From the IMG/VR virus record IMGVR_UViG_3300025676_000013: DNA of 64,000 bases. One strand, given 5' to 3'. Origin of the DNA: a virus. The notes beneath the pieces are model-generated. The model did not search any database, was not told where the DNA came from, and was given only the letters and a program-made list of their open reading frames with translations. This document shows positions 7,792 through 57,340 of this stretch, one piece after another (position 1 is the stretch's first letter; the number at the start of each line of letters is the position of its first letter). Position numbers and translations under genes: made by a program.

Positions 7792-9507
7792 TTATACTTG
7801 GCCAATCACTTCAGCAAAATCAACACCGGTTTTCGTAGCAACGAAATTCAGAGTGATAAAGTTGATTGATTTGGAGGGTTTAATAAACATACTAGCCACG
7901 AACTGATTAGCATCGATGATTTCGCCTGTATTGTTCTCTGCATCACATTGAACATAGAAATCATACATACCTTGTCGTGCCTGAATTCCTGCGAGATATG
8001 GGTTAACCATATTCCTGAAATTCGTCCTAGTGAATTCATTGTTGAATTCAAACAAGAAGTATTTAGCGGAGATTGAGATTGCTTTCTCAAGTATGATAAA
8101 CAACCTACGTACATTGATTCTATCGAATGCAGAAGGTTTAGTTAGCAACGTGCGGTCTCCCCAAAGAACTGTTCCTTGACCAGGAAAAGATACAATTGGA
8201 TTGATACCGTTTGGAAGCATATACAACTGGTCTCGATGTGCTAAAGATGGTTGATAAGCAAGTTTTACAACTCCCTTAATCTGACCACGATTTAGTCCAC
8301 CTGGACTCCACCACGCATCACGAACTGAATCAGTATGACCACAAAGTCCACCAATATCACCACTGAATCCAATCCAGCGATAAGTATCAGAATAAACGTC
8401 ATAAACGTACTTGTAGTTACCGTCAAGAGTTCCGTATGAAGATGCAGAGTTAAAGGAAACATCCTTTCTCCAAGCAATTACATTATTAACAGAGTTTGTG
8501 GCTCCGCCAACATTAACAACTTCTTCTTTTGGAGGTGATATAATTGCAATACAATCTTTACGATATTCTGCAACGGATTCAATCATATACTTAGATACGA
8601 TGGCAACCTGTGCTGAGTTCTCGTTAGAAAGTCCACCAGCGATTAGTAGGCTAACATTGATTTCATCTGCATTTTGGAACTTGTCCCAACCTTGCATATA
8701 CTCGTTAGCGCCAACTGTCCCGGCTGATACTGCAACGACCCACGCATTACCATTGCCTTCGCAAGTTGCTTGGTCATCTGCACTCATATCATCACAATGA
8801 GCAGGAACTCCAGCCGATACTGCGATTCCGCCACTGAACGTGACTGATACAGGACCAGGAGTAGTATCAACGTGGTCACTTACAACCCAAATTAGTTTAG
8901 ACTGCTTGTTTACTTTATCTTCTGCCCAGATGTTTCCACCGTCAGCATTTTTAGTGCCTTGAAGCACTCCCACTAGATAGCGTTCTACTATTTCTTCGTT
9001 AACAATTACAGCAATTGCTAATTCGTTATTAGAGGCATCAGGTGCGACATCAAAAGCGCCTGAGTATTGCCAAGCATCCCAAGTAGCATCACCAGAGTGA
9101 GTTTCTACAGAAATTCCATTTCCGTAAGTACCAGGATATCGAGCATAAAAGCCTTCTGTCAAAGTACCTGAATCGAGTTGCGTGTCAAAATCTTCTGCAC
9201 CGGTAATCTGAGTAACATTGCCATTAGGAGCGGCGTTCATTGCTCCAGAGTCAACAACTCGTACTACTTGAAGACTATTCGTGTACTTCAAGAAAGCGGC
9301 AGAAGAAAGAAACGCAGGGTATGTATCGTTAGTTGGTTGCCCAAAAACTGCTACAAGGTCGGCTTCTGAGGTGCACAAGTATGGCTCGAAAGCCGGCCCC
9401 CAAGTAAAACGACCTACGGTAGCACCTAGAGAGGTAGCAACTGCGGGTATAGACGTGGACAAATCGATTTCTTTTGTCTGTACGCCTGGGCTTAATTGAA
9501 ATCCCAT
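7792..9507 (-). CDS. gp18: Tail sheath protein, T4 gp18-like (compact, 571 aa)
   Basis: LSPGVQTKEIDLS, YPGTYGN, WWSPGGLNRG, RDQLY...INPI, WGDRTL, SAFDRINVRRLF, IKPSKSINFITLNF. Confidence 0.96.
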   Translation of the reverse strand: MGFQLSPGVQTKEIDLSTSIPAVATSLGATVGRFTWGPAFEPYLCTSEADLVAVFGQPTNDTYPAFLSSAAFLKYTNSLQVVRVVDSGAMNAAPNGNVTQITGAEDFDTQLDSGTLTEGFYARYPGTYGNGISVETHSGDATWDAWQYSGAFDVAPDASNNELAIAVIVNEEIVERYLVGVLQGTKNADGGNIWAEDKVNKQSKLIWVVSDHVDTTPGPVSVTFSGGIAVSAGVPAHCDDMSADDQATCEGNGNAWVVAVSAGTVGANEYMQGWDKFQNADEINVSLLIAGGLSNENSAQVAIVSKYMIESVAEYRKDCIAIISPPKEEVVNVGGATNSVNNVIAWRKDVSFNSASSYGTLDGNYKYVYDVYSDTYRWIGFSGDIGGLCGHTDSVRDAWWSPGGLNRGQIKGVVKLAYQPSLAHRDQLYMLPNGINPIVSFPGQGTVLWGDRTLLTKPSAFDRINVRRLFIILEKAISISAKYFLFEFNNEFTRTNFRNMVNPYLAGIQARQGMYDFYVQCDAENNTGEIIDANQFVASMFIKPSKSINFITLNFVATKTGVDFAEVIGQV

Positions 9508-9624
9508 CGTTTTTCTCCTATATTAAAAGTAATATTTTATATCTATGACTAAGGTTCCCCACACGTTGTACCGTTATTCAGTTATCTTGCGATTCATCCG
9601 TGGAAGTCTCTACATCATTACACA

Positions 9625-9632
9625 TATTTATA
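9625..9632 (-). promoter_or_regulatory. Late promoter for gp18-gp19
   Basis: TATAAATA on the minus strand, about 118 nt upstream of the gp18 ATG; GGAG RBS present. Confidence 0.8.
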
Positions 9633-9660
9633 AAATATCAGTCTTTAGAAGCCTCTACTA

Positions 9661-13821: not shown

Positions 13822-14634
13822 TTATCCTACTAAGAAATTAACCGGAAGTTCATAATTAAGTGAAAATTCTTCTTGAAGTTTCTCAATCTCTTCTTTCGCT
13901 TCATCCCAAACTTGTTGCCCATTTACTGTAATCCCACCAGGCAATGGCATTCCGTCAAATTGTTTCATATTTGCACCCCATTGCTGTTTTATCTGAGCAG
14001 TGGCATACTTCTTCACCCATTCATCGTTATATACATCTACAGCGAATCCGGTTGCTTCATCTGGAGTAACTGCTTTCCACGCCCTTAGAAGCATAGAGTG
14101 TCCTTTAGTCCAAGTACCTGAAGCGGCTTCACAAGCGGCTTGAGTTAGTATCGTATCATCTGAACAACTTGGTCCAATGATTTTGCCAGAGTGTGAGTGT
14201 AATTGATTTGTTGCTTTATTGAAAGAAAATGTTCTGTCTGGATTAAAATAACTGGCAACCATATCTAAATGTTGCATTGTTATTTCATAATATGCCATAC
14301 TAACTTTGGTCATATCAAACATCTCATCCGCCATAATCTTGTAACGGACATCATTCATTGCTTCTGAGGAGAATCGTCCTGGCTCAAATATCCTAGTTAC
14401 TGCTATAATTGATTCATCTAGCGTAATATACTGATTAGTAGCATCAAGCGCCGTGAACTCTACAGTAAGAAACTTTTCCTCTGCACCATCAAAATGTCGC
14501 TCAATGAAGAGTTGAATCGCATCATCAATTCGGTCGAATGCCTGTATAGGCTCGACTTGAATTTCTATCTTAGGAGAACCTAGTTTCCTAAAAGCGTAAT
14601 CCATTAACTCCTGTGCTGTCTGTATTTTTGCCAT
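13822..14634 (-). CDS. gp13: Neck protein, T4 gp13-like, with inserted Cys module
   Basis: YAFRKLGSPKIEI, WVKKYATAQIKQQWGANMKQFDGMPLPGGITVNG. Confidence 0.92.
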   Translation of the reverse strand: MAKIQTAQELMDYAFRKLGSPKIEIQVEPIQAFDRIDDAIQLFIERHFDGAEEKFLTVEFTALDATNQYITLDESIIAVTRIFEPGRFSSEAMNDVRYKIMADEMFDMTKVSMAYYEITMQHLDMVASYFNPDRTFSFNKATNQLHSHSGKIIGPSCSDDTILTQAACEAASGTWTKGHSMLLRAWKAVTPDEATGFAVDVYNDEWVKKYATAQIKQQWGANMKQFDGMPLPGGITVNGQQVWDEAKEEIEKLQEEFSLNYELPVNFLVG

Positions 14635-26555: not shown

Positions 26556-29500
26556 TTATACTTCCCAAACATCTTTGAGTGTAATAATACCCCTCATATT
26601 CTCAAGGTTGCCATCGTATCTACTAGAAGTGTAAAGTAATGACGCAGGAGTTCCTAGTGTCCAAGATTGAGTTTTGAATGACCAAGAGTCGTTCAGCGTG
26701 TGTCCGTTTGGATTCTCGAACTGAATCATAATACCATTCTTGTAGTTAGTACCAGCAGTGTTATTTGCAGAGAATTCAGAATCATTCGTATTGCCCTCTG
26801 GTCCAAACAATGCTAAGTCTACATTGACATTATTAATAGATGCGCCTTGCAATAGAACTGGGCCAGCAACAATTATGACAGGAGTCTTATATGCAGTTCC
26901 AGGATTAGTGAATTCGATAGATGAAACATTACCATTCAATCCTAATACTACCGTTCCTTCTGCCCCGTAACCAGTTGGTTCTGCGTGTTCATCTACAACA
27001 ATGACTCGTGTTTCGCCAGGAACATAATCTGCCCAATCTTCGACAATCGTTCCAGCCCCGATACCATTATTAAGAGATACACTTCCTACAAAACCACTTC
27101 CGACTGATTTAGTGCTTGAGCCAACTAGGCCACCAGCATCTGAAACTACAATCATCGGTTCGTCATAGTTAGTTCCACGTGTAGTTAATACAATGTCAGT
27201 TACTACGTTATTAAGGTCTTGAGTAAGAACTGCGCCTGAACCAGTATCTAATGGGTCATTGATAGTAAACTCAACATCGACATAATTAGAACCCGGTTTA
27301 ACAACAGTTATTGAAACAATTTCACCAATCGTAATTGGTGCAGTCCAAGTACCTGAACCAGCAACACACGTTGCTTCGTCTGAGAATGCAACATCTGAAC
27401 AAGAACCTGGTACTGCTTCAGTAGTTAGAACTGGTCGAACAATTGCACCTGAACCATATAGAGTACCAGTCATATTGCCTGTGATATCATACTGCGGAGT
27501 TCCCGTAGGGTCCATCACAACGATTTTAGTTTCTGGTGAGTATCCTGTACCACGATTGGCTACACCAACAGAGGCAATAGAACGATTAGTTTCTACAGTT
27601 GCGTATGCTCCTTCTCCTGGCCCAGATACATCAACTATGTTCACTATATCAGTAAGTGTATATCCTTGTCCAGGTCTGTCTACAGCAATATTGATAATTG
27701 TTCCTGCGGCATCGACTGTAGCAAGTCCTCGAACTCCTCCACCAGTAGGTGAATTGATATCAACAAAAACGCTATTATCACGTACCCAAAGGGTTGCTTT
27801 AATGTTTGTGTCATTATCATCATAGAGGTCATACTTATCTGTGATTTCACATTCTTTAGTAATTACGTATGTGAAAACAGCATTCTGAGGTACGTCACCA
27901 GAATCAAACATCCCACCTGCGTGAGTAATTGTATGTGCTTGAATATCTAAGTTTGTAAACTCTAGAGTATCTCCAACATTAGCAGAGATAATAGATGGAA
28001 CAAAAGCGTTGTTCTGAATATCGACACTTACTGTTTTAGCAGTAGTATCCGTATATCCTGTACCAGCGACTGATACTGCGAATCCAGCAATTCCGCCGTC
28101 AACTAGTGACATTGAAGTTGCGGCTGCCACAGTAGGAGTTCCACCTGTAATTGCAACACTGTCAGCGACAACATAATCTGCTCCGCCATCTGTAATTGTT
28201 ACAAAATCTACACTGTCATCTTCTTTAAGAGTAACATATCCAGCCGCAAGTCCACCAGTTGAAGTGGTGAAAGTAAGCGTGATAGTAGGATTAACAATGT
28301 GAGTAGTAACTTCCCTTGGATGAACGTGAGCACCGTTTGTTGCAGTGAATTCAAATGATTGATTGAATACGTTCCAAGATACTGTTTGGTCGTGAGTGTG
28401 ACCCGCATCAACCGTAGTTGATAGAACAGGAGTTCCCGATTTAATAAGATTAACTTCAGTCTGGGTTAGATGAACTGTATGAGTATGTCCATCTCCACCT
28501 GGTACTGCGGCAACCGCTACTTCATAGTATCCAGTATATCCTGCACCAGGAGTTTCAACTTTAACTTCTTCTACCATTCCATCTTTCAATGTGAATGAAG
28601 AAACCGCTTTAGTTTCTACTGAGCCCGCTACATCAACTGCTCCCTTATCAAATGCTCGTACTGAAGTATTTGCTGACCATTTAGTACCACCGTTTGTGAT
28701 TACGACATCTGAAACACCATCATCATAAACTGCGTTAAGTATTGCTCCAGTTCCTTGTTTTCCATTTGCATCAACTGTGTATGCGTAAGAATCAATAAAT
28801 CCAGAGTCATCATTGATGAACACTTTATAAATTAGTCCGTCTGATAATTCTTTTACGTATGATTCGCCTGAAATATTATACTCATAAGAACGTGTAAAAT
28901 CGTCAAGTAGTGCGACAATTGGGTCAAAATATTCTTCACAAGTAGTAGGAGTATCATAACTTCCACCAGAACCATCGATATCCGATGCGTTGTGCATTGC
29001 AGTCACGCCCCAACCAGTCACTGAACTTGTAGCATCGTGACAATAAGATTGGAAAGGCTTGAATAGAACTGTATCGTAATGTTCTGCAAAGTTTCCTGTT
29101 ACACCATTATTGTAAACAGTATTACCAGTAATGTCTGTAATTTTGACATAATCTCCACTGTCAACTCCACCAAACATAAGTGCGGCATCTGCGCCACGTC
29201 TTAGAATAAGTTCTGGGTTGTCTGTGTCTGGGATAGAAGTGTTATTAAGAATAGTTAAGTCTACTGCAGGGTCACCATTAATTTCGTGTCCCGTTGCTCT
29301 GAATGTAGTAACTCCACCAACTGTGGTATTCTTGTTAATATCATATGCTTTAATCTTAGTAACTGAGGTAGAACCTGTAGCCGTTTCAATATCAAGTTTT
29401 AAGTGATGTTGGAATGGTCGTGGCTCTCCTACAATCTGCATACTTTCACCAAATGATACAATTGCACCAGATGTTGGATTATATGAAATGTGGTGAGTCT

Positions 29501-30140
29501 TATTAGGACCCTCTTCAGCAAACGTAATATTACCTTCTGCATTGTAGAGATAATCAGTAAATCCGATTTCTCTAGTCATCGTGACTTCAGAAAGTAGAGT
29601 ATTCGTTTGATGGATAGAATATCCAGAATCGGCTGCGCCAGAAGTATATTGCGATAAGTTCGCAAGCATATCTGCTAGTGCTTGAGCAATAATAGAATCC
29701 TGATACGCAACGTGACCAGTATAATCAGTCGTTAATTGCGATAGGCTGTTTGTTAAATTCGTTTCAAGAGTATTAGCGTGATTTGATAGAACATTTCCTG
29801 CATCATTGGCCCAAGGGACGAATGTTGCATTGACGAATCCTTGAACCTCATCGTTCATATAGGTTTCTACAGCGTTCATAGCCGTATTTGTTCTAACAAC
29901 TACCTCATTCTTGAAGGTATTCTGTTGATTTTCTAAAGGAGTTGAGATATTATCATTCAACCAGTTCTTCATTGATGCGGCCATCGCATTCAACTTAGTC
30001 GGTATCATAACCGCTGGTGTATTTGTGTATATCTCTACTTCTTCGGTAAACGCCGTGACATCGACACTATCAAATGTAATATCTGGTATGTCATTGAACG
30101 GGTCAACCGCAGTAGTTATGCTTGATAGTGTTACGGACAT
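26556..30140 (-). CDS. Large virion structural/fibre protein (1194 aa) with His module, cupredoxin-like fold and GxGY repeats
   Basis: Repeated V.V...G.GY...P.I.I units; GHTHTVHL...GHTH...AHVH; IQNNAFVPSIISANVGDTLEFTNLDIQAHTIT; late promoter upstream. Confidence 0.7.
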   Translation of the reverse strand: MSVTLSSITTAVDPFNDIPDITFDSVDVTAFTEEVEIYTNTPAVMIPTKLNAMAASMKNWLNDNISTPLENQQNTFKNEVVVRTNTAMNAVETYMNDEVQGFVNATFVPWANDAGNVLSNHANTLETNLTNSLSQLTTDYTGHVAYQDSIIAQALADMLANLSQYTSGAADSGYSIHQTNTLLSEVTMTREIGFTDYLYNAEGNITFAEEGPNKTHHISYNPTSGAIVSFGESMQIVGEPRPFQHHLKLDIETATGSTSVTKIKAYDINKNTTVGGVTTFRATGHEINGDPAVDLTILNNTSIPDTDNPELILRRGADAALMFGGVDSGDYVKITDITGNTVYNNGVTGNFAEHYDTVLFKPFQSYCHDATSSVTGWGVTAMHNASDIDGSGGSYDTPTTCEEYFDPIVALLDDFTRSYEYNISGESYVKELSDGLIYKVFINDDSGFIDSYAYTVDANGKQGTGAILNAVYDDGVSDVVITNGGTKWSANTSVRAFDKGAVDVAGSVETKAVSSFTLKDGMVEEVKVETPGAGYTGYYEVAVAAVPGGDGHTHTVHLTQTEVNLIKSGTPVLSTTVDAGHTHDQTVSWNVFNQSFEFTATNGAHVHPREVTTHIVNPTITLTFTTSTGGLAAGYVTLKEDDSVDFVTITDGGADYVVADSVAITGGTPTVAAATSMSLVDGGIAGFAVSVAGTGYTDTTAKTVSVDIQNNAFVPSIISANVGDTLEFTNLDIQAHTITHAGGMFDSGDVPQNAVFTYVITKECEITDKYDLYDDNDTNIKATLWVRDNSVFVDINSPTGGGVRGLATVDAAGTIINIAVDRPGQGYTLTDIVNIVDVSGPGEGAYATVETNRSIASVGVANRGTGYSPETKIVVMDPTGTPQYDITGNMTGTLYGSGAIVRPVLTTEAVPGSCSDVAFSDEATCVAGSGTWTAPITIGEIVSITVVKPGSNYVDVEFTINDPLDTGSGAVLTQDLNNVVTDIVLTTRGTNYDEPMIVVSDAGGLVGSSTKSVGSGFVGSVSLNNGIGAGTIVEDWADYVPGETRVIVVDEHAEPTGYGAEGTVVLGLNGNVSSIEFTNPGTAYKTPVIIVAGPVLLQGASINNVNVDLALFGPEGNTNDSEFSANNTAGTNYKNGIMIQFENPNGHTLNDSWSFKTQSWTLGTPASLLYTSSRYDGNLENMRGIITLKDVWEV

Positions 30141-30210: not shown

Positions 30211-33200
30211 TTATGGAATCACTAGAGAAGATACTTCTCTAAATTGAGTTCCGTCTGCGTTTTCAACTATTACATCATATGTTCCAGAAGCCAGTCCACC
30301 TTGGTCATCGACCATTGCCAGATTATTAACATCTGTGAACTGGTAACTTGGACTATTTGCCACTGGTCCTGTACCCGGAGTGCTAGTAAGTTCTACCCAC
30401 ACTACAGTACCATTTCCACCAGATACAAATCCTGCTCCAAGTATAAACCAATTAGACGGGTCTATCTCCGTGACCGATATGATTCTTAATGTATCTCTAA
30501 CATTGAATAAGGTTGGAGCAGTTGCGGTATCTCCATCAGTATTTGTAATTATAAACTCTTGGTCTCCAAGTGGAGTTAGAGGATTGATAACAAAATTAAC
30601 TTTAGTAGGCAACAAGACTGCTTGTGAAACCTGTTCGACTCCACCGAGTGTGATTGTCCATAATGGGTCAATACCATCACCAACTACTTCGACTGTATCT
30701 CCCGCCATTGCTGAGACTACTGTAGTATCCCAAGTTCCTCTTGGTGCAATACATTCTGCTTCAGTCGTGAAGTTAGCATCAGAACAATGTGCTGGAACTT
30801 CAGGAGTCCAAGTGCCTCTTGGTGCGATACAAGTTGCTTCAGTCGTATATGAAACGTCAGTACAAGTACCTGGGGTCCAAGTATTATTCGCTGAAGTCCA
30901 AGTATTATTCGCTGAAGTCCACGTACCTGCATTATTTTCACAAGATACTTGGTCATAGTAAGAACCGATAGAACAAGTTCCCTGAGCCAGACAGTTAGTT
31001 TCGTTATTGTTATATACTGGATTAGAACAAGTTCCTTCCATTATACAATCTGCTTCAGTATTATTTGCCGATGCTGAACAACTTCCTGCAGTCCAAGTTC
31101 CGAATGGTTCTACACAACCTGCTTCAGTAGTATAAATTCCATCAGAACAGAATTCTGTTGCGAGTCCCGTCCAAGCACCGTTTATTGTTTCACAATCTAC
31201 AGAGTTGTAGTATAATGGATTAGAACAAGATGGGGTTATTGCCGATACTGCTCTATTACCAAACTCAATACTCATAGTGGAAATCATAATTGGTGGATTA
31301 AGAATTTCATTAGAACGCTTGTTAACGTCATAGTAATCTTCAACTACAGATTCTCCGAATGATTCAAGAGTACGCATTCCAGCGATTGGCTGTCCAACGT
31401 AATCTGCATTCTTCATATCAAGATGGTTGTTTGCCCATCGCTCTTCTCCTCCGATTGGAACTCCGAAGACGTTCATTGAACGTGCTAACAATAGATACTC
31501 ATCAGATGAAAGATTAGGAACAGATTTTACTGAGATGTTATCCCAATAAGTGAATCCATTTCCAGTAGTTGAAAGAGTTAAGAATGCGTTACCCGTAACA
31601 GGTGCAGTAAAGATAAAGTCTTTAGAGCCGTCTGTGTCGTTCGCCGCAATCACCATACTTCCATACGCATCTGAATCAGGCGTAGGACCAATCTTAACGA
31701 TTGAATCAGTAGGTCTATCAATATCGAATGATACTTTATAATTCAATTTATCAGTAACTTCAAAACTAATATGTGCAATACCTCTTGCAGAAGTACCGAC
31801 ACCAGATGTATATATTTGTTGAGTATTTTGATTTACATAAGCCTCTGCACCTTGCTGAGGTGAGAATGTCCATTTCTCTTCGATTTCTCTAACAGAAACA
31901 TCATCAATACTTCCTTGAAATCCCGTATTAGTATAATAAGGACTATAATTTTCAGGTCGATTATTATCTACAGTAGATATGAAGTGAATTTTGCTATCCG
32001 CAGAACCCGCTCTAACGTGATGTGTACGTTGTCCGCTTGGAACAAGTCCAGTTGTATCAGCATCAAGAACTGGGATATCTTCTTCGTGTAATGATACAGA
32101 ATTGATTAATCCAGTTCCATTCATTCGTAGAACAAACTGGTCACTGGCTTCACCTATCAAATCGAGATGATGAATACCAGATGTAGTAATCGTTTTCTGA
32201 AGAACTCCGCCAATCAAGATTTCAATTGATGGGTTATTAGCAGATGTTCCAATCAATGCTAGTGTCTCGTGTCCTTCAGGAATAGTTTGACTAACTAGAA
32301 TATAACTTCCAGTATCATAACTAATAGTGAATTCGTGAGTATATGTATCAGCGTGATAGGCATCAGTCTGAGGGAATGTTCTTGTGCGAGTTGCATCAGC
32401 CATCAACCAATCAGCATCAACCTGTGTAATCTGGAATTGATGTGAGTGACTTCCGTTAGGACCAGGCCCAACTTGGAAAGTAAGAATATTATGTGTCTCA
32501 AGAACACAATCTAATGTAGTCTCGTAACTAGAGTTTTTGACTAAATTATTCTCTAGAGTATATGTCATTGTTCCATTTACAGAAGAGTTAAAGTTCATCA
32601 CTGCATTAGTAATTGAAACATCAACACCCGAAGCAGTCCAATTGATTTGAAGTGGGTCTACTATATCAAGATTCCAGTTAGCAATCTTATGAGTAGTATC
32701 ACTACCAAGAGCAACTCTTAATCGCCCAGTCATTCCATTATCACTTGGGTCCATATCTGCTAAGGTATACTTAACTTCATATAGTTTGCCAGGAGTAAAT
32801 ACTACTGTCTGATTAATCTCAGTATCAGATAAAATAGTTCCGTCAAGATACGCTTTACCGTTGATTGACTGCCATCCTTCACCCATATACCAAGCATTCT
32901 GTCCAGTAACACGTTCTCTGATTGATATATTATCAATCTTACCTATTCCCGTGTTAGACAATCTCAGTATTGCAGTATTATTAGGAGCGACTACAGTTTC
33001 AGAATAATGTCCTACTAGTGTATTTGCAGTTCCGACAATCGTTGTATCGCCCATCAAGGATGCTGTAAGTGTTCCATTCTCTGCGCCGAATACATCTTTA
33101 AACGACTCAATAATATCATATTGAATTTCGTAAGTGATTCCGTCTTGAACTGTTCCAGTAACAAGTTGTTCGATATGAGCGGCAGTGCCATCAGTTGTAT

Positions 33201-36200: not shown

Positions 36201-37923
36201 TCGTTATTGTTACTGTATCAACAAATCCAGTAGCATCAATCGTACAAGTCGCTTCGGCTTGAATCGCAGTTCCACCATCAGCAACTAATACTCCGAATGG
36301 AGCAGAAATAGATATAGTAGGAACAGATTGATAACCAGTTCCAGGTTCGTCTATAACAATACCCGTGACTGAAGCATCAAATCCTATAGTGCCAGTTGCA
36401 CCAGCACCACCTCCGCCAGAGATATACATTGTCGGGATGTTTGTGTATTGAGAACCACCACTATTTAATGTCAATGCTGTTACTACACCACCAACAACTG
36501 TCGCATCTGCCGAAGCATTTACTGTATTAGAATCATTACCACCTTGGAAGGTGATAACAACTGGAACAGTAGCATTCGGGTCAGTTTCAACGTCACCAGA
36601 CTGAAATGATACTAAGTCAGTAAGTGAAAGGTCGTGATAAAGTGATTCTACTACGTTTTGTGAGCCTGCTCCACCAATTGAGGTACAGAGTTGAGGCATT
36701 ATCTGGCTAATATTATAAGAATTAGATAGTGCAGGTAAGGCTACATTAGCGCCATAGTTAATAGGAATCTTGATTGTATCGCCGGGGTTTAGTCCGTGAT
36801 TCAATGAATAAACAAATCTGTGGTTAGTCGTACTGGACAATCTTCCTTCTTCGAGCGGGTGAAAAGTACAGTGAAAATATAAATCGTGATATCCATCTAC
36901 TACCCAAGCCCACTGTTCACCAGGTGAAAGGTCAGGAGAAGCAAAGGATATATTATCATCAGAAACAGCATTGTGAACCAATATGTTTGTATCTGGATTA
37001 TTAAATATGATTGTGTCGCCTTCTCTCGCTTCGAGATGGTAAGGGACAAGAATATGTGTTTGTGTGTTCGGGTCGTTAATTGCGCCTTCGAACCAGTGAC
37101 CGCCTGTACTTGTACAAGCAGTTTCCATTGCGACAATTGAAGTCAGATATTCTGGTGTGATTACTGTCCAAGTCTCGCCAACACCTTCACAAGTTGCTTG
37201 GTCAGAGATTGAAGGATTATTAGAACAACTGCTACAAGTAGGACGAACTAGAAGTTCGTCTTCTATTACAGAAGCAACAAATGTTCTTGGGGCTGGTCCA
37301 CCACCAACTTCTGAGAAAGTCGCTGTATCAGGAGCAAGCATATCGACCATATTTTTAGCACCTGAAATAAGGTCCCAGTTAACATCATTAACTGTAAGGT
37401 CGTATGAAAATTTGTATTGAGTATTTGGTTTAAGATTTGCTTCAAACCAAGCAAGAGCAACCTGTTGACCATCGGTGTAAGCATCAACAATCTGAGTTCC
37501 CTCAGTAAAGAACCTGTCGAATTGGTATGCAATACCATTCGCCCAAGGACTTGCTACGTTAATTGGTTCATCAAAACCACTATTCTTGAGCAATTCAACT
37601 TCAAACGCATCTGCGGCAAAAGAACTATTTTGAACAAGGTTAGAGGATTCATATGTTATATCGAGACCACCATTCTCAATCATTTCTGTTGGTGATACGA
37701 ATTGTTGTGAACGGCCTGCGACATTAATTAGAAAATCTTTATATTCTGGCAAATGTTCTAGGTTTTCCATTACCTCTAAAGACTTCAGCATAAGAGCCAA
37801 ATCCTTAACAAGAAGGTCAGGAGCATCCAATTTAATGTTCAAAGAGTCCAAGAAGGAACTCTTCTGTTGCTCTATAGTGTTTAATTCTAATAGACTGAAT
37901 TTGTGACCTGTATAATGTGCCAT
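30211..37923 (-). CDS. Giant multidomain virion protein (2570 aa): CBM-like repeats, two cupredoxins, His modules, Cys-module array, IPT/TIG-like C-terminus
   Basis: YFHCTFHPLEEG; GHPF...LYYQCGWHASMVG; repeats ending D[ND][VI]S[FIV][KR]E; C-x10-C-x6-W array; AGDTVEVVGDG...FIITNTDG. Confidence 0.75.
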   Translation of the reverse strand: MAHYTGHKFSLLELNTIEQQKSSFLDSLNIKLDAPDLLVKDLALMLKSLEVMENLEHLPEYKDFLINVAGRSQQFVSPTEMIENGGLDITYESSNLVQNSSFAADAFEVELLKNSGFDEPINVASPWANGIAYQFDRFFTEGTQIVDAYTDGQQVALAWFEANLKPNTQYKFSYDLTVNDVNWDLISGAKNMVDMLAPDTATFSEVGGGPAPRTFVASVIEDELLVRPTCSSCSNNPSISDQATCEGVGETWTVITPEYLTSIVAMETACTSTGGHWFEGAINDPNTQTHILVPYHLEAREGDTIIFNNPDTNILVHNAVSDDNISFASPDLSPGEQWAWVVDGYHDLYFHCTFHPLEEGRLSSTTNHRFVYSLNHGLNPGDTIKIPINYGANVALPALSNSYNISQIMPQLCTSIGGAGSQNVVESLYHDLSLTDLVSFQSGDVETDPNATVPVVITFQGGNDSNTVNASADATVVGGVVTALTLNSGGSQYTNIPTMYISGGGGAGATGTIGFDASVTGIVIDEPGTGYQSVPTISISAPFGVLVADGGTAIQAEATCTIDATGFVDTVTITNAGSEYTGPPAVTFVGGSPTVNALATGSVDGSITSLTLEQGGTGYGSGGSTTGGGAVVGVGERKWEDYIITAVQKGDARVDVFFDDVNVIGHIHTGELTTAEYATIQTGTNVISMSTTDGTGSGDNSPHAHSVTYNWDPALNNGAGGMYIVGMTGSHTHGMSEYYVIEGGTNIELTNFGHYHQLLLDITDEATLKASPLTGVTQDTDGTWSHTGGATKIGTSNYGTSDPQHFHTVEFGCIDPANDTYLIISIDQHIHDFDRVYYPGSSQFTVGKYDFALGGDDLNPSTIATPFTDIAGYVKKERGIESDGHQLKAGDKIHYTNVYNGIHHGNTNYFVDYVIDWDHFALTETVIYPLENAPGTTPTFFNVIESYEVVADMASFRYEVERDLTNHVGDPFISGVEVLWSRPRTVKSVNHALSVGDVVQLPSGPQPYTPTELPGAMMNHTVVALGDGYGPTDGFEIIVDTQSTITAADPGQTTVEGAQDSPWFWSWHDMSNISYYPYQRDIAEHEAFGGNEGTAGGFDLFRGGKYTFVNNAWSSSGHVTAPDPFTGVMQDMYMHAAGIKAIPGGGWDNLVQAGMTRGLGEPNEGYHCVNKNASHGLTIETGALNDFVSLEDNPGTWVSDQPFPVCMGLSGWCEELDVTGWYYNGVDDYSVCTALNPNEDVGLAQWRVSQWIGNFSKEFTWKIPEDFGLTGADGVSGFGPFVPPGETNLYYAVEDDGGLYKFDKEGMIEGTNRTLNLYRGATYRFRVNAPGHPFYITTDDGSHFTPGAYFGEYLLGVTGSRGEEGAGVQTDPGSKFGLDAAGVPKYEIVEFTVPSVAPDTLYYQCGWHASMVGTFNIIDIPVVNAGDDIVVYYHHGQENMYTPLHIKDKIQIDNGTGNDYFQVQPEPANAFPVAGTQADLLQLGNLVTATGLGALPKIQAMNIELGTIQYIDPVTMIKGANSEQFLVTNNHEGLAKVYMSVDINQRSNILLDNVSFKEVVWTETGSWEVNGGTAHTTDGTAAHIEQLVTGTVQDGITYEIQYDIIESFKDVFGAENGTLTASLMGDTTIVGTANTLVGHYSETVVAPNNTAILRLSNTGIGKIDNISIRERVTGQNAWYMGEGWQSINGKAYLDGTILSDTEINQTVVFTPGKLYEVKYTLADMDPSDNGMTGRLRVALGSDTTHKIANWNLDIVDPLQINWTASGVDVSITNAVMNFNSSVNGTMTYTLENNLVKNSSYETTLDCVLETHNILTFQVGPGPNGSHSHQFQITQVDADWLMADATRTRTFPQTDAYHADTYTHEFTISYDTGSYILVSQTIPEGHETLALIGTSANNPSIEILIGGVLQKTITTSGIHHLDLIGEASDQFVLRMNGTGLINSVSLHEEDIPVLDADTTGLVPSGQRTHHVRAGSADSKIHFISTVDNNRPENYSPYYTNTGFQGSIDDVSVREIEEKWTFSPQQGAEAYVNQNTQQIYTSGVGTSARGIAHISFEVTDKLNYKVSFDIDRPTDSIVKIGPTPDSDAYGSMVIAANDTDGSKDFIFTAPVTGNAFLTLSTTGNGFTYWDNISVKSVPNLSSDEYLLLARSMNVFGVPIGGEERWANNHLDMKNADYVGQPIAGMRTLESFGESVVEDYYDVNKRSNEILNPPIMISTMSIEFGNRAVSAITPSCSNPLYYNSVDCETINGAWTGLATEFCSDGIYTTEAGCVEPFGTWTAGSCSASANNTEADCIMEGTCSNPVYNNNETNCLAQGTCSIGSYYDQVSCENNAGTWTSANNTWTSANNTWTPGTCTDVSYTTEATCIAPRGTWTPEVPAHCSDANFTTEAECIAPRGTWDTTVVSAMAGDTVEVVGDGIDPLWTITLGGVEQVSQAVLLPTKVNFVINPLTPLGDQEFIITNTDGDTATAPTLFNVRDTLRIISVTEIDPSNWFILGAGFVSGGNGTVVWVELTSTPGTGPVANSPSYQFTDVNNLAMVDDQGGLASGTYDVIVENADGTQFREVSSLVIP
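30875..30921. repeat. Exact 21-nt tandem repeat (about 2.2 copies) encoding WTSANNT
   Basis: GTCCAAGTATTATTCGCTGAA twice, followed by GTCCA. Confidence 0.9.
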
Positions 37924-43898: not shown

Positions 43899-44909
43899 TT
43901 AGAATTCTACTACGAGTTTCAAATCCTCAATCTGGTCAGATGCACGAGTAATAGCACGCCTGTTCTCAAGATAAATCAACTGTCCACTATCGCTTTCTAA
44001 ACTTACGTCTGCATCAGCATATACGGATGCTTGGGCTTTCGTTCCGCCACCAGCAAGTTCTGGATTACGCAAGAGTCCGATTTGTCGAAAGTCATCGTTC
44101 TCTGGGAATCCGTCTGAAGTCTCAAGTCTAACGTGAATCAATCCGTGGTGAGTTTTCGCTGTAAATATAGAATCTACATCACCGAAATCGGCCTGCTCAG
44201 ACCCTGCAAGAACTCCTGTACCTGAAATAACTGGCATCCAGTCATTGGTAGTAGAGTTAATAATGTCGTTCAATTCTAGTTTATATAAGAATGTCCACGT
44301 ATAGTTGTCAGATGTAGTAATCGCTTGAGCAACTAGTCCAGCGGCATCTCCAGTAAAGCCAGTTGGCTCTTCAGAAGCACCAGTAGGTAACCAAAGTCCA
44401 CCTAAAGTACCTTCACAAGTTGTTCGTGAAACAGCAGTTCCGCCATCAAAGACTCCACCAATATAGCATTTTCCGCCAGATGGTTCGCCTGTACACATAT
44501 AAACTCGATATTCAGAATTCATCACAATACTGTGACTTCCGATTTTTGAAACAAAAGAACGGCCAGGTTCATCAATTCCTGTGATGCCGTTTGCGGCATC
44601 TCCGTCAAATGCGATAGTATCACCTGTTTCCCAGTTAATACGTGGAAGCACGGGTGAGATATCATCATTCTGAATTCGCTTGGTACCAACAATGTCAGTC
44701 CAATATTGTGATTCATCCTCATCAAGAGGGTCAGGTAGAGTAAAGTTACCTGAACTTTCGTCATTTCCTTGAGCATCATTAGGCCAAGCGTCATTTCGCC
44801 CAAACCCTAGATACAGGAAGTTGTCGTCAACAGAACCAGTAGTTTTGAACTGGTCGATGAAAACCATCAAGTTCTGTGTTCTGAATTTACTGGTTACAAT
44901 TGCACCCAT
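43899..44909 (-). CDS. gp8: Baseplate wedge protein, T4 gp8-like
   Basis: AIVTSKFR, YLGFGRNDAWP, VLPRINWETG, VMNSEYRVYMC, DNYTWTFLY, SGQLIYLENRRAITRASDQIEDLKLVVEF. Confidence 0.92.
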   Translation of the reverse strand: MGAIVTSKFRTQNLMVFIDQFKTTGSVDDNFLYLGFGRNDAWPNDAQGNDESSGNFTLPDPLDEDESQYWTDIVGTKRIQNDDISPVLPRINWETGDTIAFDGDAANGITGIDEPGRSFVSKIGSHSIVMNSEYRVYMCTGEPSGGKCYIGGVFDGGTAVSRTTCEGTLGGLWLPTGASEEPTGFTGDAAGLVAQAITTSDNYTWTFLYKLELNDIINSTTNDWMPVISGTGVLAGSEQADFGDVDSIFTAKTHHGLIHVRLETSDGFPENDDFRQIGLLRNPELAGGGTKAQASVYADADVSLESDSGQLIYLENRRAITRASDQIEDLKLVVEF

Positions 44910-50900: not shown

Positions 50901-52271
50901 TCTGTCAGAAGACAGGAAGCCGCCAGAGTCAAGCCAGTAACCATTTGTTTTCCAAACGGCCGTCTTGACATTAGGTTGAGTCTCGATATTAACAAGAGCA
51001 TCACACTCTTCTCGTGTCAAAGGAGGACTACTTACATTTAATAGTATATTGTGTTCTACGTCTTGAAGGGTCTTAGTAATATCGACTACTGGGTACCACG
51101 AAAGAAACGCACTCTCTCCGAAATAGGGGCTCGCCTTGTCTAACCCATCCGGGTGCAACGCCGCCACACAATCAACCTCAGTAGTAAACGTATGAAGAAC
51201 TGGCCAATCCGTAGAGATACTACAGAATGATTGGCTCGGGTTTTCCCAATAGTTGTTCGCCGCCACGTTAAATAATTTCTCACCTAACTCAAACTCACCA
51301 GTTACTTCTAATAGGTTAAGTTTTGTCCAGTCAGTATCAGTACCATCAATGGTTGCTGTAGCACCAGAGGTTAATCCTTTTATTAGTGAACCACCCTCTC
51401 TGTGTACCCCTGCCGCGTGTAGGTAATGAACTTCATTTGGATGTCCACTAATATTAATCCATTTATCTGTCCATTTGTGCCCATTGACAATACATTCACC
51501 CTCTGTCCGAATACCGTCAGAGATGATTAGTGCTTTATAGGGTATAGTGCCAGATGTACCAACGTCTTCCCAGATTTCTTCGTCTTTAATGAATACGCCA
51601 TTTACTTCGGTTAATAGGAGTCGCTCGTAGTCTGTAGTAGAGACTGATTCGTCCATATCCACGAAAGCCGTTGCGCCGCTAATTTGGCCACGGATTTTTT
51701 TGTTGTAGATAGACCGTACCGTCTCGGCCACGTGTGAGTTATTCGTGTTGCCGAAATAGGGCGATGCAGAATCTAGTGTGGCTTGGTCAGTTAGTACCGT
51801 AATCCATTGTGGCTCATACCATACACTGCCAGACGCCTTCATCATCCATTGCTTTGGATACATCGTATCAACGTCTGTATTAAAGTCTCGTCTGAATAGA
51901 AACTCTAGGGCAGAAGTAGTACCTTTCTGTCTATAGACAGGTTGGATATTCTTAGCAAGGAAGGACTTGTCAGTAGTCTCTACTGTTGGGTCTATTGAGG
52001 TGTGTGGTGTACCGTGGAGATACTTAGCCTCGAATTCTGGTATGAAATTATCTAGTGCGTGGTCAACATCAATGTTCTGAATCAAATCAGTTATTTGATT
52101 GTACTCGCCTAGTTCCCCATTAACACCAGTCTCTCGTTCCAAGTATTCAAAATACTTGCGAAGGAAAGTGATGAACATAGGATGGTCTTCCCGTACATAG
52201 TCGGGCACCATTCTCTCAACAAAGACCGATAGGAACTTAGCAGGAGATTTAGTAAATTTATCGTTAGCCAT
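45000..52271 (-). CDS. gp7: Baseplate wedge initiator gp7-like protein with inserted GSDH beta-propeller and His-rich repeats (2423 aa)
   Basis: N-terminal PDYVREDHPMFITFLRKYFEYLE, YRQKGTTSALEFLFR, KLQDNDYYQDFSYVIRS...KKLVHPVG; between gp6 and gp8. Confidence 0.85.
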   Translation of the reverse strand: MANDKFTKSPAKFLSVFVERMVPDYVREDHPMFITFLRKYFEYLERETGVNGELGEYNQITDLIQNIDVDHALDNFIPEFEAKYLHGTPHTSIDPTVETTDKSFLAKNIQPVYRQKGTTSALEFLFRRDFNTDVDTMYPKQWMMKASGSVWYEPQWITVLTDQATLDSASPYFGNTNNSHVAETVRSIYNKKIRGQISGATAFVDMDESVSTTDYERLLLTEVNGVFIKDEEIWEDVGTSGTIPYKALIISDGIRTEGECIVNGHKWTDKWINISGHPNEVHYLHAAGVHREGGSLIKGLTSGATATIDGTDTDWTKLNLLEVTGEFELGEKLFNVAANNYWENPSQSFCSISTDWPVLHTFTTEVDCVAALHPDGLDKASPYFGESAFLSWYPVVDITKTLQDVEHNILLNVSSPPLTREECDALVNIETQPNVKTAVWKTNGYWLDSGGFLSSDRKLQDNDYYQDFSYVIRSDVPIQSYREVLKKLVHPVGLKLFAEFSFRSTVDLVIELPTDYVKMIIAIFSYLDVAVDIWDQESEQHGSVGRAHTGFGVFIEKGFDEYIIEMMGNLDSRAALVTPDNWGAPGEHVGVDIVTDKNEIKTIGTKLTEKLYQINILRDEIKNQINAWPEKVVFEFTNLLRVLPIEEFPPSVTELGIEDNLENTTDGRMISCDVYELSVFKHLSRVVEWVESFMQEAEYAPEKSYGAFESGREDTLVKKVYGNTNDVIDAVQIQAFDNPNVIHSHGRKNGFAPLVSTSLTKGLELPLMSVGAAAFHVHSFDGSAIPNLMVHGKEATAHGLSYSQARALMNSDAFEIPEFLADVHTTAFLPEATGHVHRFVDGQIVDRQRGRVSDPLSRADARKLIDGDITDVTLYDSIGITTNGVPETDENGVFQGGTVADSNGITSAHYHEYLVTYESDWEMNTDFMGNPCTHGFRYTPVTTWICYNYKPELVVDPSLIDGVDYSGNTMNLGQNVFNELDDATVATAIGEASFTFQHAQTFPATLVPNVDWVELYSSNYIQQVPGSGDTGDLLGDVKMGTGTDIATIVAYPMDPDKICIVDQSGIIHLMDTTSGVKSLFFDYTSLNLTIGVGPFGAYDERGALGLAFHPDYATNGLLYVYYMTEQGPSTGSYGYPLSTSIIAEFTADVAAETVDITTERILITQPQPDMNHNGGQLVFGPDGYLYIGFGDGGNAGDTSSSSGHGGHGVYGNAQNPTNILGTILRIDVAPDTVNNKPYSIPSDNPFTGVNAKPHGTAGAMFREEIWAYGLRNPWRFSFAPDGKLWAADVGQNKFEEVNIIEKGGNYGWRVMEAYHYFEEDQATIDQMALDQGYANTQAFLLDLKSPIHEYSHGTGISILGGFIYRGSDLTGLQGKYIFGDWSTSWAGTTGHLFSLEENPDGLSAHFTITPNAINGANHSHEAILTPSQVAMAQANPGTPIVVVQSDTVHAESYTHTFSIIWNAAFNTWNLIAQTNMENHDVFTFIEYNGDVGYTRKNLSFWDPATSVLNLTTHDQSILTLGEDTNGELYMATRIGIDSYQGTGPQNCDIYKLTDTYDSSTETGASSQIPASETAHVHGYKVVYDINTELFSATEISDIEMTDWDAFFPIWTYNTPVSHLHPVITSWTGIVDENILLGSSAGWHLNPLTLVWEPYDTGSDTPYLAVDDDDDDGTFYIETAPVVEILGANEYGENAHIHYFNSETLDTFGANDGRTAVPITRIQAEELANGVVNAFYVYSSIEDSGQHQHYHVYKIMWNLSTQQFVADEMAEMWDENGTGEWEAVDTHLRTHEHTLLVNGITTHLGWNGTPLYTAPDVTLSNAHDWHKLEGSEPDHLHAFNGTTLDTLGTHTGRQALPLDDNQATDLINGEVTEVKTYTSISGGDHYHGITITYDPNTLSFVALDTEKWESSDGHQFYSADPRSHAHPTNISNLFSRPGYNEMMEILPTFASPGYPYPGGSHPHFHNDTVVGPFAEGALTGQISYAHGMTIDQGMQLIDGVVDSVTIYDSIEGAHFHEYRIKWDTNYNIFYADWSVTWIKGGIEDSLQDPTKYYVSVVENAAEGLHWHNLTIDWNPNLVAIPQQTGGSIYITKTTSTDEVLSAAPSVVVTQASTELLPVTTTYPDTPATGDTTIIVTYSDLITTTTTSTVQITTTTTDIIYYSDYGTETSVGDPVITSEVTTSQTTSEVEDLTERKTYVNNVLQANNPPIVQMQPSFIAGIGSHDHLLYDGCSLDSAGVNVGRTCEPITLAQANDLINAQNANYGIIFFDSPNGASSHYHGYTIKFNPNMGAKGTFVVAGISQWDIIPGTSTYVHKFSLTGGFHDHDYWISVADYTSLIGGTYVTTPQRDSTHAAVYTHELVLEWNGSTYNIISQTSDYDNHDTISYLGSVPIGGQWSQNTQGSGAGDHVHSTTVDDSNVWPVPA
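47610..49170 (-). other. Glucose/sorbosone dehydrogenase (PQQ-type/HHIP-like) six-bladed propeller domain inside gp7
   Basis: ERGALGLAFHPDY, NHNGGQLVFGPDGYLYIGFGDGG, IWAYGLRNPWRFSF, DVGQNKFEEVNIIEKGGNYGW, ISILGGFIYRG, GKYIFGDW, LGEDTNGELY. Confidence 0.88.
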
Positions 52272-54811: not shown

Positions 54812-55029
54812 TAGGGTCTAAACCTCTTGAATTTGAGGGTATCTCTCACGCTATTCACAAAATTTCTCTTCGCTGTACCAATAAAACTTTTTTTTATTTC
54901 CGTGTTTTTAGCGTTTTCGGTGGTATTTGCGAAAAAAGTGGGGTTTTCAGGCTCTTTTGACCGAAAGATAGAGTCGTAATTGTCTCTATAGGCATCATTC
55001 ACGGGCTTTTGAGTCTCGTTAATAGTCAT
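54811..55029 (-). CDS. Small hypothetical protein (start re-assigned to 55029)
   Basis: ATG at 55029 directly after the TGA of the 769-aa gene; MTINETQKPVNDAYRDNYDSIF; stop overlaps the PAAR start. Confidence 0.55.
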   Translation of the reverse strand: MTINETQKPVNDAYRDNYDSIFRSKEPENPTFFANTTENAKNTEIKKSFIGTAKRNFVNSVRDTLKFKRFRP

Positions 55030-55030
55030 A

Positions 55031-57340
55031 TCATACGTTCCTAAATTTGTCAAATTGGATAGAAGGTAACTTGTCTGTGTCGAAAGCCTCTTGAGAAGGT
55101 AGTTTAGATTTGGTATTGACGTTCTTTTTGTTAGTAAATTTGCCATAGGACTCTACTGCCTTATTGCCTTTACTACTGCCTACTTGCCCTTGTTGACATA
55201 CCCAAGAACCATTAGCGTTCTCGCAAACTTCCTTAGACTTAGCATTAGTGACATCAAAGGAACTACCACCACCAGAAGAGCCAGAATCAGCGGCTTGAGA
55301 GACCACCCATTTACCATTGTATTTGATACAGGCTGCCTTGCCAGGTAGATAAGGGTCAACCTTAGTCGCACCCCATTTGGCTAATACAACAACCTCTGCG
55401 GATTGATAGATATTATTGTCATCACCCATAACGTATTCTTTGCTTCCTGATTTCTCTGCGGCATCGACTTTGGCTAATAATTCGGGTGTATAGAAGGAAG
55501 GTTCTATTAACTTATATCCCTCAGGGAATCCTAGGTTTGTGAAGTCACAAGAGCCTACTTCCTTAGTGGAAGCCTTTGCGGCTTTTGGCTCACAGGTACA
55601 GGTTTCTACCTGAGACCAATCACCTGTCTTCATTGCTCGTTCTACTACTTCCATTGATTGATGATATTCACTGATATCACCACCGATATTAGATACTTGC
55701 TGTGCGAAATTAGCGGCTACAGAGGCACCCATTCCATAGTTGATATTGCCAGGTAACTCAGTTGGTAGCACGAAAGAGGCACTATTAAGCGGAAGAAATG
55801 GAGTAGGAGAGTTCGGGTCTGCGGATGATGCTGCCGCGGCTGCCGGTGCTGGACTAAATGGGGATGCTTTATCTCCTGCAAACTTAGAGGCTGCCGGTAA
55901 AGTATCTCGAACCTTTGTTGATACTACAGGAGCACCTGATACAGATTGTGATGCTGGACTACTTGGAGGTGGGTCACCTACTATAGAACTAAACGCATCA
56001 GAGAGAGTAACAGCAATCTTGCCCATTGCGGCTTCTATTGAACCTGCTACTTTGACTTCATTATCAGTCATTTCTTTCACGTTCCAGTCACCTTTAGTGG
56101 CCTCACACGCGGCTTTGTCTCTGTTTCTAATGGTGTCTGTACCACCTGTACACCATCCTACTTTGTGTAATTTTGCTACTGCGTTCTTCTTATATGCGGT
56201 TGCTTCATATGCCTTAGCCTTAGCGTTCTTAATGAATTCGTTTTTAGAACCACTGAATCGGGTCTTGCCTGCTAAAACTTCCTTTGTGAAGTCTGTAACA
56301 GCATCTTCAGGTACTGTCCATCCGACACCATTGACATACTCCATCTCTTCAGAGGAGTAGACTGCATCGACTAATTCTGTGCCTGTAGGGATACTTGCAG
56401 AAAGGGTAGAAAACGTCTGAAGTCCGCCTTGTGCTTGTTGCTTGAATTTGGGTAGTGATGGTAGTCCACCAGACACCTTACCTAAGAAATCACCTAATGG
56501 GATAATAGGATTGGTTGGACTCGCTGTAATACCAGTGACTTGTTGATACAATGTGACGATATCATCCATAACAGGTGTCGCAATATGCTTCAACATCTTA
56601 TGGTTATTGACCAAGGCACAAGGGTCACCTGTTGCCAACTTAGCGAATGCGGCCCATTGTGCTAGTTTGTTCAATGCGGCTTGCATTGCATCAAGGTCTT
56701 TTTGGATGAGTGCATTCAAAGAACCCATCATATCTTGACACATACCATTGAAATCAGCAACTAAATCTTGTACAACATCGGCAGATGCTAACATATTAGA
56801 TATTGCTTGTGGATTGGTGCTATCTATGATAATTCTATTCACTCGGCGTTGAATCTGTTTCAAGTCACCTAGTCCAAGAGCATCATCAATGACACCAGCA
56901 CCATCGAACAATGTGGCGAAGCCAGCAACACAATCAATCTCTGATTCGTAATTGCCTAGCAAGTCTGCTAGTTCTCGTCCTGCTTGTTGGATACCTGAAT
57001 TCTTAATATAGTCAGTAGCGGCTGCGGCTGCGGCATTCAATGCAAAATCACCACAGGTGGTGAATGAGTCAGAGAGGTCTTGAACCTCACTCAATGCTTG
57101 CCATAACTGAACACCATCTTGTCCGAATGCGGCTTGCAGGGCTACTGGGTCTACCTTATCTGTGATAAACAGACTATTGGCCGCAGTCTTCATCTTAAAC
57201 GCTGAAGTATGAGCAGGCGATTGTAACATATCCCCGACTTGACCTAACGCCTCGTTGATTCCGCCCCCAAAGGAAGTTGTACCAGTGGCAGACTTAATTG
57301 TATCTACTACACTTACACCACTTGTTGAAAAACTGACCAT
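55031..57340 (-). CDS. Uncharacterised 769-aa protein between gp5 and PAAR
   Basis: Helical Ala-rich N-half, Pro/Ser/Ala linker, Cys-containing C-terminal region with three C-x4-G-x-W motifs. Confidence 0.7.
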   Translation of the reverse strand: MVSFSTSGVSVVDTIKSATGTTSFGGGINEALGQVGDMLQSPAHTSAFKMKTAANSLFITDKVDPVALQAAFGQDGVQLWQALSEVQDLSDSFTTCGDFALNAAAAAATDYIKNSGIQQAGRELADLLGNYESEIDCVAGFATLFDGAGVIDDALGLGDLKQIQRRVNRIIIDSTNPQAISNMLASADVVQDLVADFNGMCQDMMGSLNALIQKDLDAMQAALNKLAQWAAFAKLATGDPCALVNNHKMLKHIATPVMDDIVTLYQQVTGITASPTNPIIPLGDFLGKVSGGLPSLPKFKQQAQGGLQTFSTLSASIPTGTELVDAVYSSEEMEYVNGVGWTVPEDAVTDFTKEVLAGKTRFSGSKNEFIKNAKAKAYEATAYKKNAVAKLHKVGWCTGGTDTIRNRDKAACEATKGDWNVKEMTDNEVKVAGSIEAAMGKIAVTLSDAFSSIVGDPPPSSPASQSVSGAPVVSTKVRDTLPAASKFAGDKASPFSPAPAAAAASSADPNSPTPFLPLNSASFVLPTELPGNINYGMGASVAANFAQQVSNIGGDISEYHQSMEVVERAMKTGDWSQVETCTCEPKAAKASTKEVGSCDFTNLGFPEGYKLIEPSFYTPELLAKVDAAEKSGSKEYVMGDDNNIYQSAEVVVLAKWGATKVDPYLPGKAACIKYNGKWVVSQAADSGSSGGGSSFDVTNAKSKEVCENANGSWVCQQGQVGSSKGNKAVESYGKFTNKKNVNTKSKLPSQEAFDTDKLPSIQFDKFRNV

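Follow-up and report, generated by a model that had tools for sequence, protein, structure and literature searches.

A two-cysteine, loop-insertable mini-domain in virion proteins of a T4-like marine phage

Introduction

Ig-like and BACON-type accessory domains are promiscuous, dispensable, variable among close relatives and thought to be weakly adhesive; Ig-like domains added to phage structural proteins (e.g., T4 Hoc) were reportedly described by Fraser et al. in 2006. The subject of this work is a smaller unit, with two cysteines and one tryptophan in the spacing C-x10-C-x6-W, found in virion proteins encoded by the viral record IMGVR_UViG_3300025676_000013, which was analyzed as a stretch of 64,000 nucleotides (hereafter, the window). 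Like the Ig-like and BACON-type domains, this module is an addition to presumably exposed parts of the sheath, tail, neck and fibres. It differs in that those domains are beta-sandwiches of 80–100 residues, usually terminal, while the module has about 22 residues and one presumed disulfide, and is located in turns or nested within itself. 'Evolved' distal tail proteins of siphophages carry carbohydrate-binding insertions. Two siphovirus distal tail proteins that contain the module (P0128 and P0131, see below) are like them in having a loop insertion, and differ in that the insertion is an array of mini-domains with no detectable carbohydrate-binding family.

Other systems resemble the module in their cysteines. 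EGF-like and thrombospondin type 1 (TSP) repeats are also small extracellular units, stabilized by disulfides (presumed in the case of the module); they form tandem stalks, and as folded repeats they are O-glycosylation acceptors. However, they contain six Cys in 40–60 residues, are eukaryotic and show no sequence kinship to the module, which has two Cys in 19 residues and gave no EGF or TSP match. The D-region of type IV pilins is likewise an exposed two-Cys loop, and prepilins or minor pilins make up many of the module's carriers; nevertheless, the D-region occurs only once, as a C-terminal loop that varies in length and belongs to the globular domain of the pilin, whereas the module is a repeatable unit of 19 residues whose Trp is invariant. 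Scans with Pfam and NCBIfam found no N_methyl (prepilin) motif in the window proteins. Concerning phage tails, virion cysteines of the Agrobacterium myophage Milano are oxidized, and the disulfides formed in the tail cross-link the sheath and the baseplate (PMC10811340). Those bonds are inter-subunit and lock contraction, while the Cys pair of the module is inside one portable unit. The closest relative with a known structure turned out to be a segment of T4 gp8, which is treated in the Results.

Results

Occurrence of the module in the window proteins

The exact C-x10-C-x6-W spacing was found eight times in the 42 window proteins (20,192 residues): once each in gp18, gp13 and a 1194-aa protein, and five times in a 2570-aa protein (Table 1). 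These were the copies claimed by an earlier, sequence-only reading of the window. Within-protein shuffles (2000) gave a mean of 0.029 expected exact matches and a maximum of 1, and a chance origin of the copies is excluded. A hidden Markov model (HMM) was also constructed solely from 469 modules of unrelated metagenomic proteins, leaving out the window's own copies. This external HMM recovered nine copies in the window with E from 1.6e-10 to 1e-3, and no comparable match in other frames. A variant with a longer first loop near the N-terminus of the 2570-aa protein, also put forward by the sequence-only reading, was among them. In contrast, the segments of gp8 and of a 769-aa protein were below significance. 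The case of gp8 is considered below; as to the 769-aa protein, the three copies claimed were dropped, as they were second-half matches only (E 0.33, 1.1 and 77), no better than chance (Table 1, with further half-motifs at 55199-55246 and 55301-55357). Isolated second-half matches (T-x-x-x-C-x6-W; E about 3–7) were seen also at 51465-51518 in gp7 and at 37087-37125 in the 2570-aa protein, and may be decayed modules or chance.

Table 1. Modules and related segments in the window. All the module-bearing genes, and the peptides quoted by the sequence-only reading, are on the minus strand, and the positions given in that reading for these peptides were confirmed.
Host protein	Open reading frame	Residues	Positions	Strand	Core with exact spacing	External HMM E or remark
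gp18 (tail sheath), insertion	7792-9507, 571 aa	228-260	8728..8826	-	8740-8796 (aa 238-256; C238, C249, W256)	1e-3
gp13 (neck), insertion	13822-14634, 270 aa	154-177	14104..14175	-	14110-14166 (aa 157-175)	1.6e-10
1194-aa structural protein, insertion	26556-30140	909-938	27327..27416	-	27345-27401 (aa 914-932)	1.7e-7
2570-aa protein, C-terminal array	30211-37923	2233-2398	30730..31227	-	30730-30786, 30808-30864, 30919-30975, 31093-31149, 31171-31227	3e-8 to 2.6e-5 (five canonical copies)
2570-aa protein, N-terminal copy	30211-37923	233-252	37168..37227	-		2.8e-5; first loop of 11 residues
gp8 (baseplate wedge)	43899-44909, 336 aa	148-173	44391..44468	-		not significant alone; derivative with expanded loops (x17, x7), at the site of the canonical T4-type gp8 module
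769-aa protein, segment			56084..56152	-		second-half match only; not accepted as a module

Besides its five canonical copies, the array of the 2570-aa protein contains two C-x10-C units without Trp closure (30991-31086; external HMM E 0.3–2.8). Within 30871-31086, these two Trp-less units are followed by a repeated T-S-A-N-N-T-W, an arrangement that fits nesting in the second loop.

The host proteins with T4 names were identified as follows. The sheath protein gp18 matched the Pfam models Phage_sheath_1, sheath C-terminal and Gp18 domain III N-terminal (E 8e-19, 7e-16 and 4e-11), phrog_23 (E 7.6e-124) and the Protein Data Bank (PDB) entries 9EV2 (E 2e-112) and 9MKB (E 4.5e-109). The neck protein gp13 matched phrog_211 (E 3.8e-36) and, by phmmer, gp13 of 9MKB (E 4.6e-21), and its model matched T4 gp13 in 9MKB by Foldseek (E 1.5e-13). 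The match of gp8 to Phage-Gp8 (PF09215; E 3.5e-30) was full-length, covering residues 3-336. The source is a distant T4-like marine myovirus. No cultured phage has a sheath more than about 45% identical to its own, but metagenomic relatives are many; the GC content of the window is 38–42%. The window sheath has 571 aa versus 659 aa in T4, and domain I, which protrudes in T4 gp18, is probably missing, because residues 106-203 align weakly to T4-type residues 209-317.

Insertion sites and copy number in relatives

Three host proteins (gp18, gp13 and the 1194-aa protein) contain the module as a clean insertion of 24–33 residues, missing from relatives at 48–77% identity. So, the alignments agree with the earlier proposal of a discrete module grafted into core virion proteins. 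In gp18, the unit was carried by 42 of 120 homologues, while relatives of 535–541 aa (64–68% identity) were without the 33-residue piece, exactly between G-G and A-G-x-V-G. The insert appears to consist of the module core borne on a two-strand stalk. At 8728-8826, near-identical A-V-S-A-G strands flank the module on both sides in a stalk-like manner, a duplication not kept in relatives. The number of copies at this site is variable, with two in homologues P0034 and P0036, three in tandem in P0035, and a loop-expanded second copy in P0037.

In gp13, 24 residues stand in for one residue of a hairpin turn, leaving a clean 23-residue indel with respect to five relatives at about 70% identity (L033, L035, L039, L040 and L042). 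In other gp13 proteins (L025-L027, G004 and L176), one module is nested in the first loop of another. In the 1194-aa protein, the module falls opposite a clean gap of 30 residues in the G004 homologue (48% identity). Four related viral records gave 10–17 profile matches each, within homologous large proteins.

Comparing the sheath and neck proteins, the window carries the module in gp18 and a single one in gp13; G001 carries it in gp18 and not in gp13; and phages of the L176/G004 type do not carry it in gp18 and have the nested double in gp13. Judging from these sequences, the presence of the module in gp18 and in gp13 varies independently between lineages. Since presence and copy number differ among close relatives, the module is dispensable for core assembly. 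On the other hand, C, C and W were kept in every insert-bearing orthologue of gp18 and gp13, across 65–99% identity. The window copies are 37–77% identical in nucleotides, which rules out a recently mobile DNA element; this divergence at the DNA level, with the consensus kept, indicates that selection acts on the peptide and not on a DNA element.

The module in gp8 of T4 and other Straboviridae

The sequence-only reading had held that T4 gp13, gp18 and gp8 are without the motif. This was right for gp18, which in the alignment has no insertion at the site used in the window, and for gp13, because a scan of the whole T4 genome matched gp8 only. It was wrong for gp8: residues 142-160 of the T4 protein have the exact C-x10-C-x6-W spacing, with G-x before and T-P after. 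The external HMM, run over 49 kb of T4, gave a single match, to gp8 residues 142-162. A tighter profile of 23 columns was run over whole genomes and the PDB. In the genomes of T4, Aeromonas phage UP87 and Acinetobacter phage AB-Navy71, gp8 was the sole match (E 1.2e-3 to 1.5e-5). In the PDB, T4 gp8 was again the only one (1N7Z, 1N80, 5IV5, 5IV7 and 5HX2), matched over all 23 positions with E 0.51, while a 30-column profile including the flanks gave no match there. The T4 gp8 match carries weight because of its exact spacing, its full length, its position and the scores of up to 23 bits reached in gp8 of other Straboviridae. The canonical copy of T4 gp8 (residues 140-162) is encoded at L169:14569-14637 (86568-86636 of the T4 record).

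The unit was present too in gp8 of Aeh1, Melville and Roth88, and it was missing from gp8 of cyanophage ACG-2014b and from two distant gp8-like proteins. The window gp8 segment could be aligned, column by column, with residues 142-160 of T4 gp8 and with gp8 of five further Straboviridae; its first loop is longer by seven residues and its second loop by one. So, the gp8 'variant' proposed earlier, which could not be accepted from the external HMM alone, is by alignment a loop-expanded positional orthologue of the canonical T4-type module. In gp8 relatives L091, L093 and L095, an extra canonical copy occurs just upstream of this segment.

Compared to the window modules, T4 gp8 residues 140-162 (1N7Z, 5IV5; PF09215) show the same exact spacing and the same G-x-C-S...G-G-x-W-T pattern, and the unit is kept in phages of Aeromonas, Acinetobacter, Salmonella and Klebsiella. 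They differ in being more hydrophobic and in number, with one copy per genome in T4 and other Straboviridae, versus the loop-expanded gp8 copy plus nine elsewhere in the window. Since T4 gp8 carries the unit, a solved structure of it already exists. No account of T4 gp8 residues 140-162 as a separate unit was found in the literature.

Breadth of the family

A profile of 24 sequences was searched against 1.84 billion representative proteins. It matched 472 proteins at E<=1e-3, 94 of them at E<=1e-10, with up to 26 copies per protein. The consensus, of about 22 residues, was G-x-C-S-D-P-x-Y-T-T-Q-A-x-C-E-A-A-G-G-T-W-T. The 10/6 spacing was exact in 460 of about 700 loose outside matches. The conservation of C, C and W in 413 of 413 full-length matches is partly circular, as the profile penalizes other residues, and was given no weight. 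T, D, N and S occur at position 8, and D or N at position 3; these are typical helix-cap and turn residues, with no strict Ser/Thr sequon.

Concerning the carriers, 13 of the top 150 matches had prepilin N-termini, one cluster including a protein of a Methylococcaceae metagenome-assembled genome (MAG), and in pilin carriers the unit was repeated up to 13 times. Other carriers were PilY1 propeller, PKD, MtrC/MtrF-type cytochrome, beta-helix and LamG proteins. When prokaryote genomes, one for each species, were scanned with a degenerate DNA pattern, 44 loci were obtained. All of these were in MAGs, and 43 were true in-frame modules. They belonged to Alpha-, Gamma- and Deltaproteobacteria, Acidobacteria, Nitrospirae, Myxococcales, Bdellovibrio-like bacteria, Patescibacteria, Spirochaetes and others, and the proteins included TadE/G-VWA, PilX_N, prepilin, PKD, He_PIG and Listeria-Bacteroides repeat proteins. 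MAGs of Bradyrhizobium-like and other soil alphaproteobacteria (L126:1856-3307 and L134:1140-2816; similarly L129, L132, L152, L156 and L160) encode TadE/G-type Flp-pilus proteins with VWA in pairs, one partner having a single canonical module and the other five to seven degenerate ones.

An unrelated phage lineage carries the module too. In its siphovirus distal tail proteins P0128 and P0131 (phrog_1302), a module array of about 185 residues sits in one loop, while their 193-aa relatives (L113:2345-2923 and L116:6001-6576) have no array at all. No match was obtained when two module arrays were run by tblastn against 50,697 records of cultured phages, a method that single copies such as that of gp8 escape; arrays are thus rare or absent in cultured phages.

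Pfam, NCBIfam and PHROGs yielded no model for the unit when searched with the window proteins and with 49 multi-copy, six large and ten MAG-encoded carriers; no usable match came from the ESM Atlas; and no description of the unit appeared in the literature searched on Cys repeats, CX10C, pilins and gp8 cysteines. This is in agreement with the earlier statement that the motif was undescribed. The idea that it is peculiar to this phage, or to phages, has to be abandoned in view of the prepilins, PilX, PilY1, TadG, PKD proteins and cytochromes of many phyla and of the siphovirus distal tail proteins. As judged by these profile matches, the module is a large family, absent as a model from the searched libraries and not phage-specific.

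Predicted fold and exposure

AlphaFold (AF2) models of the gp13 and gp18 modules showed the same local secondary structure, namely strand, short helix, strand, with local pLDDT of 81–84 in gp13 (helix 165-170) and 77–85 in gp18 (helix 246-251). In the predicted layout, the first Cys is in a strand bridge, the second Cys is in the six-residue helix, and the Trp is in the returning strand bridge. The ends of the module are predicted to be adjacent, which would explain both its insertion into a hairpin turn and its self-nesting. The gp18 insert stops immediately ahead of the counterpart of T4-type gp18 residue 346, at the end of domain II; in T4, domains I and II of gp18 form the solvent-exposed part of the sheath (PMC3004832). 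By this alignment, the location of the gp18 copy would be at the virion surface, as the sequence-only reading had supposed. The gp18 subfamily has, in addition, four Asp in the first loop (C-D-D-x-x-x-D-D-Q).

The sugar-modification genes and their slot

The sequence-only reading had considered that the module could be an acceptor signal for phage-encoded sugar-modifying enzymes. A cassette does lie among the tail genes, with an HldE-like kinase/adenylyltransferase, a cupin, an HldD-like epimerase and two carbamoyltransferases. Modules and cassette were both present in G002 and G003. In G001, a fragment record, the carbamoyltransferases were present and HldE was not found. G004 has 10 modules; no HldE and no carbamoyltransferase was found in it, this record being also a fragment, so that absence is not proven. 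In the gp18 copy, positions 2, 7 and 8 are Asp. The acceptor hypothesis lacks support because of the bacterial and T4 carriers and of the tolerance of Asp or Asn at the 'Ser/Thr' positions.

In the window, the cassette occupies the slot between the fibre genes and gp13. The syntenic slot of G004 (L112:9669-12968) instead encodes a flavin-dependent tryptophan halogenase (PF04820, E 1.9e-98) together with a protein that has a methyltransferase domain, and the arrangement is the same in the L176 phage (L176:1-3220). An invariant Trp in the module and a Trp halogenase in the slot are mentioned here as a juxtaposition only, with no link claimed.

Discussion

It is very likely that the module constitutes a real family and that the insertions are true ones. 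The safest statement is that it is a widespread extracytoplasmic mini-domain, loop-insertable, with a burst in this phage clade. Going further, the interpretation that we favour, and that as a whole seems somewhat more probable than its rejection, is that of an oxidation-stapled, loop-insertable mini-domain acting as a surface decoration or spacer. In this T4-like marine clade, the unit has multiplied and been inserted in turns of the sheath, gp13 and the 1194-aa protein, with an array near the C-terminus of the 2570-aa protein. The two invariant Cys would pair internally once the particle meets oxidizing water, and the disulfide would give a stiff, protease-resistant knob on the solvent-exposed surface of the virion, or a stalk when in tandem. 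The most likely role would be decoration or spacing leading to weak multivalent adhesion to the surface of hosts or particles. An internal disulfide is likely in view of the invariance of the Cys pair, of the secretion or surface location of the bacterial carriers, and of the disulfides that do form in the Milano tail. The decorative, spacer or adhesive role is favoured by analogy with the Ig-like and carbohydrate-binding insertions of virion proteins; by this analogy, a decorative or adhesive function, as opposed to a neutral passenger, is put forward tentatively.

Several points weigh against this interpretation. T4-type virions are put together in the reducing cytoplasm. Fold, exposure and disulfide are all either predicted or derived by homology. 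The T4 gp8 match, taken alone, is borderline with respect to the whole PDB (E 0.51), and the T4 gp8 copy, more hydrophobic (I/L at 3, 6, 13 and 15), may be packed against the protein rather than displayed. No result of the analysis points to a ligand, a glycan or a partner. Finally, the pattern of presence and absence fits a neutral passenger equally well.

That last explanation is a serious one, even if rather improbable in our estimation. The module would be a stable, self-contained peptide, tolerated in exposed turns and spread by duplication and recombination without a function in the virion, as would suit its nested copies, its very different host proteins, and a presence, absence and copy number that vary freely at the same sites among close relatives. 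However, a passenger would not be expected to keep C, C and W in all the insert-bearing orthologues of gp18 and gp13, nor its gp8 copy across Straboviridae genera, and the retention of the consensus by copies of diverged DNA points to purifying selection on the peptide. With still less probability, the module could be a glycosylation acceptor, recognized in folded form by the heptose/carbamoyl enzymes of the phage, as EGF and thrombospondin repeats are recognized by O-fucosyl and O-glucosyl transferases. The cassette is real and placed amid tail genes, it coexists with modules in G002 and G003, and the module is Ser/Thr-rich. Nevertheless, G004 and L176-type phages carry modules with the methyltransferase and the Trp halogenase in that slot and no HldE or carbamoyltransferase found (in fragments), the G001 fragment is without HldE, the module is common in bacteria and occurs in T4 gp8 without any cassette, and the conserved 'S/T' positions accept D or N, as in the Asp-rich gp18 copy.

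The Cys residues themselves admit two other interpretations. A cross-linking or redox lock, in which inter-subunit disulfides would stabilize the extended sheath or the neck as in Milano, could be thought of in view of the disulfide-linked sheath and baseplate of that phage (PMC10811340) and of the multi-copy nature of gp18, gp13 and gp8. We consider it very unlikely, given that the Cys are always paired, 10 residues apart, inside one small unit, that this unit is found also in monomeric contexts, tandem arrays and pilins, and that insert-free relatives build the same sheath. Least probable, to the point of being almost discounted, is the binding of a metal ion by the Cys pair or by the acidic first loop of the gp18 copy. 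The gp18 subfamily does keep its four Asp; yet the acidic loop is specific to gp18 and not a feature of the family, there are only two thiols and no conserved His, and an extracellular two-Cys unit is more typically a disulfide.

Beyond the favoured decoration or spacer, and as a more speculative and rather unlikely proposition, the module could be among the smallest promiscuous domains: a loop-insertable, self-nesting, single-disulfide fold of about 22 residues common to type IV filament proteins (pilins, PilX, PilY1 and TadG) and phage tails, with the same surface-binding or stiffening property in both. The burst in this clade would then be an adaptation by which the whole virion, from sheath and neck to baseplate and fibres, was re-surfaced.

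The results define a protein family of hundreds of members, unmodelled in the searched libraries, which can aid the annotation of giant phage fibres, pilins and surface adhesins. They also locate natural tolerance sites, at the end of sheath domain II and in the gp13 hairpin, which accept 0–75 extra residues and are useful in phage display and engineering. As a feature of an uncultured marine phage is tied to T4 gp8, for which genetics and a crystal structure are available, the module's fold, disulfide and role are directly testable. If the adhesive role were true, it would bear on how marine myophages find their hosts or stick to particles.

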